This document shows, one piece after another, positions 29,827-34,586 of a DNA stretch of 64,000 nucleotides (the stretch's first letter is position 1; each line of letters begins with the position of its first letter). The stretch is from a virus. Location of the stretch: the UHGV virus genome UHGV-0247568; one strand, given 5' to 3'. A program made the translations under genes and the position numbers. The notes beneath the pieces were generated by a model. The model was not told the origin of the DNA and did no database searches. It saw nothing but the letters and a program-made list of their open reading frames with translations.

Positions 29827-30123
29827 TTATTTATTGGCGCTTGGTTTGTAACCAATTAATTTGCGCAGAGTTTTGCCTTCATCATTCAATAGCCAAACAG
29901 CTACAATTTTAAAGTCTTCATAATAAGCATTGTCTAGCAATTTTATATTCAAACCATTTTCATCATGAGTGAATACCATTGGATGAGATGATTTATTTGA
30001 AACAACTGTTTTGTTAATGTCAGTTCCAGTTGCGGTGATACCTGCAATATAATCAACTCGTAATGTTGCTGCTTTCTTATTATTAATTTCCTCTTTACTG
30101 AACTTGTCAATTTGTAATAACAT
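29827..30123 (-). CDS. hypothetical protein (98 aa) between terS and terL
   Basis: ORF only. Confidence 0.4.
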   Translation of the reverse strand: MLLQIDKFSKEEINNKKAATLRVDYIAGITATGTDINKTVVSNKSSHPMVFTHDENGLNIKLLDNAYYEDFKIVAVWLLNDEGKTLRKLIGYKPSANK

Positions 30124-30266
30124 ATAAAATCTCTCCTATCTTTCTGTCTAATTAATAATATGTTATATATTATGTAGGCAGACTAACAAAAAACCTAAAA
30201 CATTAGTCTGAGTTTTTTAAAGGTATCCAGTTTTAAAATCGAAATATAATGCGACCGTTTCGGTCT

Positions 30267-30759
30267 CTATGATTTCAATGCGGCTAACAGCGGATCTTCT
30301 TCCTCTTCTTTTGCCTCGACTTTAAGTTGGCTTAAACTAGCCCTTGCTGAAGGAGATAATCCAAGTTGTCCACACAAAGCTCTATATTGTGTTAAATATG
30401 CTAATTTCGTTTTTACCATTGGATGTTCTTTTGGAATTGTATTTCCAAACTTATCATAAGAATCATATTTGATTCCTTCACGAGCTAAAATTTCATCAGC
30501 TTGTTTCATTTTTGAAAGACAATCAGCTGTTTGTGATAATAACGGTACGTCTAAATTAGACAAAAATCCTGATTCGCTGAATTCATTAATTAGAAATTGA
30601 TAATATTCTTGGGCATAATCGTCTATATCGTCTGGAACAATCCACACTAAATCGTCATTTCCTGCCATTTCTTTTTCAACTTCTGCTCGTTCGTTTAAAT
30701 CTTCTTTTGTTTCACTTTTACCAGCTTTAACTGTTGCTGGTTTTCTAGGGTCGTGCCAT
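30267..30759 (-). CDS. terS: terminase small subunit, P27 family. As sequenced, a +1 shift at the CCC run (plus-strand GGG 30748-30750) is needed to join the start ATG-GCA-CGA-CCC to the main frame
   Basis: The body ends SNLDVPLL…YRALCGQLGLSPSARASL, the P27-family C-terminal signature. The main frame continues upstream of the annotated Met (30668) as …HDPRKPATVKAGKSETKEDLNERAEVEKE, matching the basic family N-terminus, but it has no start codon. An ATG at 30759-30757 (TAATG overlap with the GIY-YIG stop) reads MARP* in the +1 frame. Removing one C gives MARPRKPATVKAG…, a 164-aa typical TerS. Confidence 0.6.
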
Positions 30760-31496
30760 TACAGCATCACCACCTTGCTTAAATATTCTTCTTTTGTAAT
30801 TGTTTCAAAAATCATATCTTTATAAAACTTTTTAGATAGTCCATATTTTACATTTATGTCGCTATATTTCTTTTTAAAATCATTTCTAGAGCTAAAGTAT
30901 TCGACTCTTCCATCTTTAAAAGATACTTTAAGCGGAATTTTACATTTGTTTTTTAAATATAACTCGGTGTTATCTATGATAGTTTCTTTCTTCATTCCTT
31001 TATTCCAAGGAATATTACCTTTCAAACTATCACTTATTTTGGATCGAGTTTCTTCTGAATGATTTTTACCAAGCATTGGGTGTATTCCTTTTTCTCCAGA
31101 TTTATACATAGGATTATTCGGACCAACACCAATGTTCTTTTCTTTTCGTGTTTTAATCATTCTATTATAAATGTCTTTCTTTTCAGAATCTGGAAGGAAC
31201 TTAATTAAATATCCACCTTCTCCTCCTGCAGCTACATTATAAGAATTTTCTCTATATTTATTTATAAAGAAAATTTCTTGAGCGTTTAATTCTTCTTCAG
31301 AGAAGCACCAACATATAATTTCATTTTTAAAGTTGTTTATTCCATATTTTTTAATAGCGTGTTTTAAGATCTTTCCGCTACCAAAATATTTTTCATCAAT
31401 ATTTTTAGTTTCTCTTTTGTGTTTTCCAATATATACTTTATTATTAATTAAGTTGGTGGTTTTATAGATATAACCAAATGGATTTGCCATATTCAT
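30759..31496 (-). CDS. GIY-YIG homing endonuclease (I-TevI/Seg-like, with NUMOD3-type DNA-binding repeats)
   Basis: N-terminal GYIYKTTNLINNKVYIGKH…YFGSG GIY-YIG motif. Repeated NPMYKSGEKGIHPMLGKNHSEETRSKIS NUMOD3-like motifs. Confidence 0.75.
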   Translation of the reverse strand: MNMANPFGYIYKTTNLINNKVYIGKHKRETKNIDEKYFGSGKILKHAIKKYGINNFKNEIICWCFSEEELNAQEIFFINKYRENSYNVAAGGEGGYLIKFLPDSEKKDIYNRMIKTRKEKNIGVGPNNPMYKSGEKGIHPMLGKNHSEETRSKISDSLKGNIPWNKGMKKETIIDNTELYLKNKCKIPLKVSFKDGRVEYFSSRNDFKKKYSDINVKYGLSKKFYKDMIFETITKEEYLSKVVML

Positions 31497-31502
31497 TCCT
31501 CC

Positions 31503-31919
31503 TTATAAATTAAACGAATCGTCAACTGGTGGCTCCCAATCAAAATCGATACCATTTAATCCTAGTTGAATATTGCAAGTCTTACATAAAGTTATAATAT
31601 TATCTTCTTCAAATGTTAATTCCGGATAATAAATACGTGGCTTAATGTGGTGAACTTGTAATTGATCACCATTAATAATGTTGTATTTAATATAGCAACG
31701 TTGGCAAATATGATTATCTCTTGCAATAATTCTTAATCTTAATTTTCTCCATCTTCGAGATTCTAATGGTTTTAAAGTTTCAATATTTTTTCTTCTATAT
31801 TCTCGACGTCGAGCATTTGACTCTTGTCTTGCTTTTTCTTTTCCAGGACAATTATGTTTAGAATCTGCTATTTTGCCGCAATATCGACAGATCGTTTTTC
31901 TCTCCGGCATTTTCAGCAA
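31503..31919 (-). CDS. HNH endonuclease (terminase-associated type)
   Basis: HNH motif NHICQRC…QVHHIKP…NIITLCKTCN with zinc-ligand Cys pairs. Sits upstream of terS, as in cos-type HNH phages. Confidence 0.75.
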   Translation of the reverse strand: MLKMPERKTICRYCGKIADSKHNCPGKEKARQESNARRREYRRKNIETLKPLESRRWRKLRLRIIARDNHICQRCYIKYNIINGDQLQVHHIKPRIYYPELTFEEDNIITLCKTCNIQLGLNGIDFDWEPPVDDSFNL

Positions 31920-32046
31920 TCAACTCCCATTCTAAATCTAAACTGTCGTCATGGATGTTAATTTCAAATCCGCAATTTGGACATTCACTAACATTAAAAT
32001 AATCTATTTTAGACCAACAATTTGGACATTCAATTAAATTTTCCAT
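31858..32046 (-). CDS. small zinc-ribbon protein (62 aa; CPNC…CPNC)
   Basis: Two CxxC pairs. RBS aggag before the ATG. Partly overlaps the HNH ORF start. Confidence 0.35.
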   Translation of the reverse strand: MENLIECPNCWSKIDYFNVSECPNCGFEINIHDDSLDLEWELIAENAGEKNDLSILRQNSRF

Positions 32047-32129: not shown

Positions 32130-32158
32130 TTTACTTTTTTCATGAAACATGATATAAT
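32130..32158 (+). promoter_or_regulatory. promoter TTTACT-N17-TGaTATAAT in the divergent region
   Basis: TTTACT 32130-32135, TATAAT 32153-32158, TG at -14. Confidence 0.5.
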
Positions 32159-32190
32159 TTAATTATACTAAAAGAAGTGAGGTTGTTTAG

Positions 32191-33199: not shown

Positions 33200-34586
33200 T
33201 TTTTTATTAAATTTTTAATTTTTATATTATATAACGCCACACACTGGTTACCCCTAAGAAACGTTTTGGTACCTGGTGTGTGGCGAAAACTCAATAACGT
33301 ATTACCAGGAATTTCGCCTTTTTTCCTGAGGACAGTGCGGGCTATTTCGTCGACCGATGCGGATGGGTTGGTAGCCATTTCACACCCTCAGGACAAAAAT
33401 AATGAATGACTGAACACACTTTAATGCATTAATGATTGATGTGATGACACAGCACATACGTTGCACACATAAAGTTGAAGCAAGAAGTAAAAGTGTTTCA
33501 CTGTCAGTCACTCTCAAGCTGTCTATACTCACTATAGTAGATATATCCTACACACCCTCAAGACGTCCCTCAGACATACCTCAGACACTACCCCTGTCTA
33601 CTATAATCTATATAATACACTACTATGATATAATATAACAATAATATGTACTATTATGCTGTATATGTACACTATATAATGTACGTATAATGTACACCCT
33701 GAGTACACATATAATATATATTATATATTTTGTGGTGCATATATGCTGTTATTATGTAGCTGATATGCAATATATATAAATAATGTGTACACACTATGTA
33801 CATTATAGTGATGCAATATTATAGTGCAACAATATACTGACTTTATATATAATATATAATCTATATACGTGCTATATGGTATAATGGTATACTGTACCAT
33901 ATTTTACCTGATATATATGGCATGTTATATACGGCTATCTATATACGGGTATATACATGGGTATATAGGTACTCCATGGTGTATATGTGCCTATCCTTAT
34001 AGACGATATATGGTATATATAATAAAAGGATTATGACCAACTCCATGGAGTAGATAACAGATATTTATTGCATACATTTTTGCGAAGCAAAATGTATGCT
34101 CCTTACGTTTTGCGAAGCAAAAACGTAAGGATTGGTAACTGCTTACTATTCCTCTTAAATATACAAATTCCTCTTATTCTAATATAAAATATCAAATAGT
34201 CTAATATATAATAATATCTCCCTCTTTGATGTTTACACCTCCATGGTGTATAGTGTAAAATATCAAATATACTAATCTATATATATAGGATTCGGTGTTT
34301 TTGTGATTTTACAGTTTACAGTTGACAGTTAGTATGATATAATATAATTATCTTAAATATGAGGAGATGAGCTGAATTTGAATTAGTTAAAGGACGTTTT
34401 AAAGTTGGAGACAGATTTAGACACATTCGTTATGGAAACTTGAATGTATTAAAAATTATAGAAGTCAGAGAATATGAGAGACATTTGCCAAACTATAGAG
34501 TGATTAGTGAAAATAATGGCTATAAATATTTGATTAGTGAAGATGAGTTAGTGAAATATCCAATTATTAGAAATGAGGAATAAATT
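33200..34586. other. 1.4-kb ORF-poor region with three parts: a GC-rich structured element (33228-33400), an AT/TA-rich iteron block (33600-34030) and twin palindromes capped by GCGAAGC mini-hairpins (34071-34130). Candidate replication origin and/or packaging region
   Basis: No credible ORF. Long hairpins cgccacacac…gtgtgtggcg and tcctgagg…cctcagga. Repeats (g)ggtatata and tatacgg. Four CCATGG copies. Palindromes catacatttt-TGCGAAGCA-aaatgtatg and ccttacgtttt-GCGAAGC-aaaaacgtaagg. Confidence 0.45.
34315..34343 (+). promoter_or_regulatory. promoter TTTACA-N17-TGaTATAAT
   Basis: TTTACA 34315-34320, TATAAT 34338-34343. A second TTTACA lies 7 nt upstream. Confidence 0.5.

Follow-up and report, generated by a model that had tools for sequence, protein, structure and literature searches.

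A packaging gene whose start codon stands out of register with its own coding sequence raises the question of how its product is made. Here, we address this question for terS (the gene of the small terminase subunit) in UHGV-0247568, an Enterococcus phage genome of which 64,000 nucleotides (nt; hereafter the window) were analysed, and in which all the genes treated lie on the minus strand. In the window, the start codon of terS overlaps the stop codon of a GIY-YIG endonuclease gene, and one extra base sets it apart from the frame in which the bulk of the protein is encoded. Judged from the comparisons given below, a +1 ribosomal slip appears to be the best-supported account of how terS is expressed, and we consider it probable that this frameshift (at CCC-U, in codon 4 of terS) is compensatory or programmed, and is carried by a mobile GIY-YIG cassette.

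The endonuclease open reading frame (ORF; 30759-31490, 243 amino acids (aa) plus a TAA at 30761-30759) ends in ...GTG GTG ATG CTG TAA and shares a base of its stop (TAATG) with the ATG (30759-30757) of a zero-frame mini-ORF, which reads ATG GCA CGA CCC TAG (M-A-R-P-stop, 30745-30759) and has its CCC codon at 30750-30748. Within its 3' end the endonuclease gene holds a new Shine-Dalgarno sequence (SD; AAGGTGGTGAT, 30766-30776), whose GGTGG core is placed 10 nt 5' of this ATG. The terS body (30267-30746) comprises R5 to S163 and a stop codon at 30269-30267; it lies in the +1 frame relative to the mini-ORF, and the proposed shift site, CCC-U (30747-30750), is the point at which CCC is followed by UAG in the zero frame. 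Read 5' of Met31, the body frame runs as ...*WHDPRKPATVKAGKSETKEDLNERAEVEKE-M(30668), and no ATG, GTG or TTG is found in it between the endonuclease TAA and Met31 itself (ATG, 30666-30668), its first in-frame start, which is preceded by a weak SD and was annotated as the beginning of a '133-aa TerS'. Coordinates and sequence thus bear out what a sequence-only reading of the window had proposed, i.e. a terS start abutting the GIY-YIG stop, a TAATG overlap that opens ATG GCA CGA CCC TAG, a body frame which runs into that stop without a start codon of its own, and a TerS frame that can be entered only by a +1 shift at CCC-UAG; the complete TerS, given there as 164 aa, is in fact 163 aa long.

The joined product (MARP|RKPATV..., its start spanning (M)ARP-RKPATVKAGKSE) is 100% identical to the TerS of phage nattely, and the mini-ORF peptide MARP equals residues 1-4 of the uninterrupted TerS homologues. 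That the mini-ORF spells MARP, and that the identical junction is present in 10 contigs from at least 7 samples, is more than chance. The body is a P27-family small terminase subunit (PF05119, 59.5 bits for a cut-off of 24.7; TIGR01558, 66.2 bits for a cut-off of 45.6; phrog_83, 3.6e-33) with terL nearby, and it is present as a single copy both in the window and in Enterococcus phage vB_EfaS_140 (tblastn), so that a second terS copy was rejected as a source of TerS.

The cheese isolate vB_EfaS_140 was the only record covering the whole region (99.0% identity) in a megablast search of phage genomes, while nattely, vipetofem, VPE25, VFW (these four belonging to Andrewesvirinae) and vB_EfKM29 matched the window in the flanks only. 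Look-ups of exact proteins in Logan and European Nucleotide Archive (ENA) assemblies supplied the informative relatives. The look-up of the 133-aa Met31 product returned 10 contigs (the isolate assembly plus ENA and Logan ones, from at least 7 samples), all 10 with the GIY-YIG gene upstream, with CCCTAG, and with flanks 97.5-100% identical to the window; one scaffold, L007, does not differ from the window at all and is presumably its source. Within this clade the stretch holds only two polymorphisms, neither of which changes an amino acid in the predicted frames: GCA to GCG in L009 (in the mini-ORF frame) and AGT to AGC in vB_EfaS_140 and L011 (in the body frame). Errors that add a single base to a short homopolymer are typical, and the sequence-only reading had considered a true sequence of CC; a sequencing or assembly error is nevertheless effectively excluded, and its probability practically nil, because the same base occurs in the isolate and in about nine independent metagenome or Sequence Read Archive (SRA) assemblies from at least 6 further samples at 0-2.5% flank divergence, and since six more lineages carry the equivalent CCC-N lesion between different flanking codons.

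The origin of the lesion becomes apparent from relatives without the endonuclease gene. After the HNH stop, nattely, vipetofem and VPE25 have TAAGGAGGAATGAAT and then ATG GCA AGA CCA AGA/CGG AAA CCA GCA..., which encodes MARPRKPATV at the beginning of a 163-aa TerS. The left junction in the window is identical to these three phages up to ATGGCAA (the old terS start), hence the endonuclease gene took over the old terS start codon and the old SD (AAGGAGG, 31498-31504 by the left-junction alignment), which now serves it. The right end of the cassette provides the new SD AAGGTGGTGAT together with a new copy of the terS start. Altogether, the window has 732 nt more than the endonuclease-less relatives (made up of the endonuclease gene plus the base added to Pro codon 4), and three differences from nattely fall within 8 nt: AGA to CGA and CCA to CCC (both synonymous), and the extra base.

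Two more pairs in which only one member has the endonuclease gene (L187/L014 and L262/L016, besides nattely/window; flanks 98-99% identical) tell the same story. In each pair the shifted allele corresponds to the local one with a C added to Pro codon 4, by which CCA or CCT becomes CCC-N (CCT CGT in L187 vs CCC T CGT in L014; CCA CGT in L262 vs CCC A CGT in L016). The endonuclease gene and the recoding site are adjacent, both are absent from the close relatives in the three pairs, and the gene is thus present or absent at one site among otherwise near-identical genomes. This comparison of junctions, which had been proposed as a check on the first interpretation of the locus, bears out a real lesion tied to the endonuclease insertion, as the near-identical genomes devoid of the endonuclease gene are also devoid of the extra base.

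The same +1 step is needed in seven lineages, i.e. the window and six more. ATG GCT CGT CCC TCG TAA is found in L014 (endonuclease 69% identical to that of the window), ATG GCG AGA CCC AAG AAA in L015 (68-70%, with a TerS protein identical to the window's), ATG CCA AGA CCC ACG TAA in L016/17 (67-68%), ATG GGA CGT CCC TAG in L019-21 (71-72%), ATG GCA CGT CCC TAG in L260 (a partial NUMOD3 ORF upstream), and GTG GCG CGA CCC TAG in L189/L190, two IMG/VR contigs that lack an endonuclease gene and in which an HNH gene and three tRNA genes precede terS, a TGA closing the body frame six codons upstream of R5. A GIY-YIG gene thus adjoins terS in five of the six further lineages (four of the five with full-length sequence). 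In every lineage a +1 step at CCC-N gives M-[A/G/P]-R-P-R-K-P-A..., as in the local unshifted TerS (e.g., the joined product of L016 matches the unshifted P0257, MPRPRKPASV), and in the lineages other than the window the zero-frame stop comes 0-7 codons past CCC. As to the endonuclease ORF, its frame is that of the body in two lineages (the window and L014, both with a 732-nt insertion) and that of the mini-ORF in four (L015, L016, L019 and L260), and L189/190 lack it; the sole feature common to all seven lineages is SD-start-N3-Arg-CCC-N.

Beyond these lineages, distant endonuclease relatives stand beside intact CCA starts (ATG GCC AGA CCA AGA in L018, TTG GCT AGA CCA AGA in L022-24). Phage 9183 (L188, NC_055907) carries at the same HNH-terS junction an unrelated 203-aa NUMOD1/NUMOD3 endonuclease-like ORF (887-1498), followed by an unshifted start, ATG GGT CGT CCC AGA, in which CCC is kept and the frame is intact; its terS may be a cassette allele that reverted after the endonuclease gene was replaced. 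Staphylococcus phage vB-SscS-F1, which aligned only from residue 4, was rejected as a shifted allele, since it has an intact ATG CCA CCA AAC AAA. A scan for the junction pattern returned from IMG/VR only the L189/190 contigs, and from GTDB two chance matches in high-GC Actinomycetota.

The 243-aa product matches PF19835 (30.6 bits, cut-off 25), PF07460 (43 bits) and phrog_314 (1e-37), falls just short of the cut-offs of TIGR01453 (54.9 bits for 56.05) and PF01541 (20.5 bits for 22.6), and shows the motif GYIY-N10-YIG. From its domains and from its pattern of presence and absence, we classify it as a free-standing GIY-YIG/NUMOD3 homing endonuclease. Full-length relatives are 53-72% identical to it, and all of their contigs carry, in this order, HNH, the endonuclease gene, terS and terL; all that an endonuclease profile retrieved from IMG/VR and Joint Genome Institute (JGI) metagenomes was remote GIY-YIG relatives, whose identity does not exceed 57% across a portion of the protein. 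Where terS is shifted, the neighbouring endonucleases fall into a single group (with 64-71% identity among themselves, and 53-58% to the two relatives beside an intact terS), within which the synonymous divergence (pS) between lineages is 0.5-0.7, i.e. near saturation, and the ratio of non-synonymous to synonymous divergence (pN/pS) is about 0.3. Hence, these genes are old and functional. Their divergence indicates that the shift was kept for a long time, although a deletion of one base would undo it, and the simplest history would be a single origin of the extra base in the ancestor of the endonuclease group, with retention ever since.

Several lines of evidence point to initiation at the mini-ORF and to a change of frame at its fourth codon. 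The duplex between the SD and the 16S rRNA 3' end is predicted at -14.8 kcal/mol before the mini-ORF start in the window and at -11.6 to -18.9 kcal/mol in the other six shifted lineages, as compared with -11.3 to -13.6 kcal/mol at unshifted terS starts and -2.3 to -7.9 kcal/mol at Met31. Conservation switches frames exactly at CCC-N. On its 5' side M-[A/G/P]-R-P is kept across lineages through different codons (GCA, GCT, GCG, GGA or CCA at codon 2, where A, G and P also occur in unshifted family members; CGA, CGT or AGA for Arg), whereas the body-frame reading of these bases varies, as W-[H/L/R/Q/D]-[D/V]. From R5 on, the body frame shows pS of 0.4-1.0 against pN of 0.09-0.31, an excess that is seen in neither of the other two frames.

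Several properties of the site itself bear on slippage. In the ORFs of the window CCC is the rarest Pro codon (18/461, 3.9%), and none of its 18 occurrences is within the first 15 codons, which recalls the situation in low-GC Listeria (about 5% of Pro codons; PMC5009743). All 7 lineages have CCC-U or CCC-A, on which a +1 slip would lead to re-pairing with CCU or CCA, respectively. The zero-frame codon entering the A site is UAG in 4 lineages, and a sense codon in the others: UCG and ACG (2.5 and 3.9 per 1000 codons, one lineage each), and AAG (9.9 per 1000, vs 81 for AAA, one lineage). The tRNA-Pro(UGG) pairs weakly with CCC and readily shifts on it (PMC4519876), and all four Pro codons are decoded by it in E. 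coli (PMC4519876), and in S. aureus by a tRNA-Pro(UGG) with 5-methoxyuridine at position 34 (mo5U34; PMC13443448); by analogy, the host of our phage would read CCC with this single tRNA. No suppressor or otherwise unusual tRNA was found, the window encoding only a tRNA-Trp and the related loci ordinary tRNAs. Peptidyl-Pro is a poor substrate for both termination and peptide-bond formation, and should prolong the pause.

The proposed chain of events is as follows. A mobile cassette would have inserted at the very start of terS, bringing an endonuclease gene that carries at its 3' end a new SD and a substitute for the start of terS, ATG-GCN-(CGN/AGA)-CCC. The endonuclease gene would run off the old ribosome-binding site and start codon of terS, and the extra base in Pro codon 4 would put the new start codon one base out of register. 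Ribosomes initiating at ATG 30759 would pause with peptidyl-tRNA-Pro on the rare CCC and UAG in the A site (a rare or minor sense codon in other lineages), after which a +1 slip would let the tRNA re-pair with CCU (CCA elsewhere); those that do not slip would release a tetrapeptide. We infer that slippage takes place and that its efficiency is useful.

Some observations weigh against this explanation. CCC is found at Pro-4 in 7/7 shifted vs 3/25 unshifted alleles, the other 22 having CCA, CCT or CCG (Fisher p = 3.6e-5, with lineages that are not independent), and as a C inserted into CCN gives CCC-N by definition, this value overstates the association. In L015 the A-site codon AAG is neither a stop nor very rare; the efficiency of a shift at CCC AAG is doubtful there, and slippage may be low in general. 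The first interpretation of the locus had listed, among three possible causes, a slip of the prfB type, of which the P-site slip beside a stop codon stands, and the rest does not: the sequence upstream of CCC (GUAAUGGCACGA) has no prfB-like SD 3 nt away, the only SD near CCC being 15 nt off and serving initiation, and the stop is UAG and not UGA. Every shifted allele has unshifted relatives at least 90% identical, therefore most of the divergence in the 5' part of shifted terS genes probably arose while they were unshifted, and we downgraded the divergence among shifted lineages as proof of selection acting after the shift. A 6-bp hairpin, ACCAGC-N10-GCUGGU (30720-30741, starting 6 nt 3' of the CCC codon), has its two arms in the conserved motif KPAxxKAG (one in the Pro-Ala codons, the other in the Ala-Gly codons). 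It folds at -8.6 kcal/mol (z of -2.2 to -3.3), and shows a compensatory synonymous pair (CCA/GCU to CCU/GCA in L014, L187 and L188); yet it is modest, unshifted alleles have it too, and its middle pair is broken in 5 more distant loci. As a dedicated stimulator it was thus rejected, and a contribution to pausing in the window clade is possible.

The chief alternative is that the upstream 30 codons are dead and that the functional TerS is the 133-aa protein from Met31, made by weak initiation or by re-initiation after the mini-ORF. The profile matches of PF05119 (residues 49-146) and TIGR01558 (41-157) are wholly retained by such a product, an AlphaFold2 model (of P0001, which is 99% identical to the joined TerS; mean predicted local distance difference test score 78.8) leaves residues 1-17 disordered, vB_EfaS_140 is viable and annotated in this way, and, as the invasions look recent within clades, an undecayed 5' region proves little; the N-terminus may thus conceivably be dispensable. 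On the other hand, Met31 has the weak SD mentioned above and lies 77 nt from the mini-ORF stop, and the missing segment contains P7, A8, G13 and E28 (invariant in the family), R3 (invariant once the miscalled shifted alleles are left out), and R5, K6, K11, S15, E16, L21 and R24 (at least 90% conserved). Few parts of the family are as well conserved as these first 30 residues. They had been described as a conserved N-terminus of the P27 family, which holds for this subfamily, although the segment is outside the two profile matches just given (phrog_83 covers residues 1-162). Alignments with the best 120 homologues listed all extend over at least 90% of the query (98-100% in nearly every case) and take in the N-terminus; homologues devoid of it were seen only as calls on shifted alleles, and none of them is among these 120. 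A start at Met31 also leaves unexplained why the SD, ATG, Arg codon and CCC were kept in seven lineages beside endonuclease genes with pS of 0.5-0.7, and we regard it as unlikely, albeit well ahead of the remaining alternatives. Comparisons with the PDB gave no sequence match for TerS, and none with Foldseek at E <= 0.001.

A fusion of the endonuclease with TerS by read-through of UAA 30761-30759 (with or without processing) is suggested by the window and L014, where the two share a frame that only one TAA interrupts. This frame comes about automatically because the insertion is 732 nt (3 x 244), and as the endonuclease ORF is in the other frame in four lineages and absent from L189/190, read-through cannot be general; moreover, UAA read-through is normally very low in bacteria and no suppressor tRNA is encoded, which makes a fusion extremely improbable. 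Equally improbable is that the insertion is removed, or the frame mended, in the RNA by group I intron splicing or by editing. GIY-YIG/NUMOD3 endonucleases are often intron-encoded, and the near-threshold TIGR01453 family is that of a 'group I intron endonuclease', but the ORF fills the entire insertion and leaves no space for an intron core, and no splice pair restores MARPRKP; Rfam yielded no family at E <= 1 in 30200-32000, and at gathering scores no intron and nothing but tRNAs in the window and 5 related loci. Lastly, terS could be truly inactive and its carriers persist through co-infecting helpers, or TerS might be dispensable. Homing endonuclease genes can indeed spread despite a cost to the carrier, yet the single-copy allele occurs in many samples and lineages, and vB_EfaS_140 forms plaques and was isolated and propagated as a single lytic phage (PMC7820071); we consider this alternative very unlikely.

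If terS is expressed through a +1 slip, what maintains an extra base that a single deletion could remove? Since this easily reverted insertion outlasted about 30% amino-acid divergence of the adjoining endonuclease, we infer a role in self-protection. By analogy with the bypass insert that acts against MobA, the base would have been kept because the carrier genome resists its own endonuclease. In the best available explanation, the enzyme's target would be the intact terS start, and the altered start (two synonymous changes plus the extra base) would confer self-resistance. More tentatively still, and with slightly less than even confidence, we propose that the extra base is the immunity determinant of the GIY-YIG cassette, acting by disruption of the enzyme's target in the carrier, the price being an essential packaging gene that depends on a +1 shift at codon 4.

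The closest known arrangement is that of T4, in which MobA and the 50-nt bypass of gene 60 constitute one mobile cassette, the bypass protecting against MobA (Bonocora et al. 2011, as described in bioRxiv 10.1101/2022.08.31.505936). Among T4-like phages, clades were invaded recently, and the bypass persists in some genomes that have lost the nuclease (bioRxiv 10.1101/2022.08.31.505936; PMC5009743). Both systems place a free-standing homing endonuclease gene within an essential gene, bring along a replacement coding end with extra non-coding DNA just downstream that must be skipped, and have close relatives without either the endonuclease gene or the recoding site; in both the element is old and its invasions look recent within clades. 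The recoding site can be kept after nuclease loss (here L189/190) and other endonuclease families can occupy the site (here phage 9183), and these two look like derived states such as those of mobA/gene 60. They differ in that MobA is an HNH enzyme with a topoisomerase target, whereas here a GIY-YIG enzyme is found at terS with recoding at codon 4. Gene 60 uses a 50-nt hop between take-off and landing GGA codons, assisted by a nascent-peptide signal and a stem-loop, while here 1 nt would be skipped by a P-site slip at CCC-N. Protection from cleavage has been shown for MobA and is presumed here.

As to the slip itself, Listeria phages PSA, A118 and A500 use +1 shifts at CCC_UGA (tsh) and ACA_CCC_UCC (cps), and CCC_UGA in pheL shifts at 15% (PMC5009743). 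They share with our locus a low-GC Firmicute host, a rare CCC, a morphogenesis gene, and a P-site slip of peptidyl-tRNA-Pro from CCC to CCU beside a stop or a slowly read codon (PMC5009743), and we see them as closer precedents than prfB. In the Listeria phages the shift (next to UGA) is at the 3' end of the gene and yields a second, longer product beside the main one; here it would occur at codon 4 next to UAG, the zero-frame product would be a useless tetrapeptide, and the shifted product the only full-length protein. With prfB (CUU UGA C) the locus has in common a short initial ORF leading to a stop and a functional protein wholly reliant on a +1 P-site slip. It departs from it in lacking an SD-like stimulator 3 nt upstream, in using CCC and not CUU, and in having a sense codon next in three lineages; moreover, as UAG is read by release factor 1 (RF1), there is no feedback through RF2. 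A further parallel is the 'savior indel' of herpesvirus thymidine kinase G-run mutants (PMC5009743), in which a beneficial indel is tolerated since low-level frameshifting supplies the essential product. There the benefit is drug resistance and the site a long G run; here it would be resistance to a resident endonuclease, at a three-base CCC.

We know of no earlier case of an obligatory +1 frameshift in a terminase small subunit, and this one, if true, would be the first. A search among the papers that were accessible found none describing a +1 arrangement of terS and an endonuclease gene, and the paper on vB_EfaS_140 (PMC7820071) is silent on it. If correct, our reading would add, after T4 mobA/gene 60, a second natural mobile element made of a homing endonuclease and a recoding signal; it would show that selfish nucleases can turn to ribosomal recoding time and again as a means of concealing the sites that they cut, gene 60/mobA becoming an instance of a general strategy and not a curiosity. 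The system is simple and testable (one base, a four-codon leader, and cultured vB_EfaS_140 alongside the endonuclease-less nattely, vipetofem and VPE25 on the same host), and could serve to measure both tRNA-Pro +1 slippage on CCC near a start codon in a Gram-positive and immunity to the nuclease. Enterococcus phages of this group are considered for therapy, where a mobile nuclease that converts co-infecting relatives matters.

A practical consequence is that the public annotations of these terS genes need correcting, as their starts are wrong. Shifted terS genes have been called either as 133 aa from Met31 or as 167-172 aa from a GTG inside the SD. Miscalled examples are P0007, P0025, P0026, P0049 and P0256, together with L014 3323-3724 and L001 1368-1769, and the spurious N-termini MVNLWDVPRKPA, MVRLCQDPRKPA and MIQIWHVPRKPA stem from the calls at the GTG.

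The order of genes in the window is HNH gene (31910-31503), GIY-YIG/NUMOD3 gene (31490-30759), terS, a 98-aa ORF, tRNA-Trp (29577-29504) and terL (29466-27760), and the order HNH, (endonuclease gene), terS, terL is kept at all the loci compared. The HNH gene encodes 135 aa counted from its ATG (the longest ORF opens at TTG 31919) and matches PF01844 (36.6 bits) and phrog_144; it is of the terminase-associated type and is found ahead of terS in every related phage. In one phage lineage an array of tRNA genes separates the HNH gene from terS, as seen in L189/L190 (Cys, Trp and Asn; L189 1-700, L190 833-1400) and in L022 (Cys, Trp, Pro(UGG), Asp and Leu; 418-1447). The 98-aa ORF (29827-30123), located between terS and tRNA-Trp/terL, is kept in all close relatives and has no Pfam match. 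Right after the terS stop there is a GC hairpin (GACCGAAACGGTC, 30253-30265), and a longer inverted repeat (CAGACTAA...TTAGTCTG, about 30180-30212) lies downstream of terS and ahead of the 98-aa ORF; the two may act in termination or attenuation between terS and terL.

Farther upstream, at 33380-34050, ORFs on both strands translate into low-complexity sequence in which Y, I and H abound, suggesting that this DNA is non-coding and of biased composition (no repeats were reported in it by Tandem Repeats Finder). Divergent promoter-like sites (each with 10/12 consensus matches) occur at 32130-32189, 5' of the minus-strand packaging operon, in a number not above that of shuffled sequence, and the operon opens with a 62-aa zinc-ribbon-like ORF that is followed by the HNH gene.

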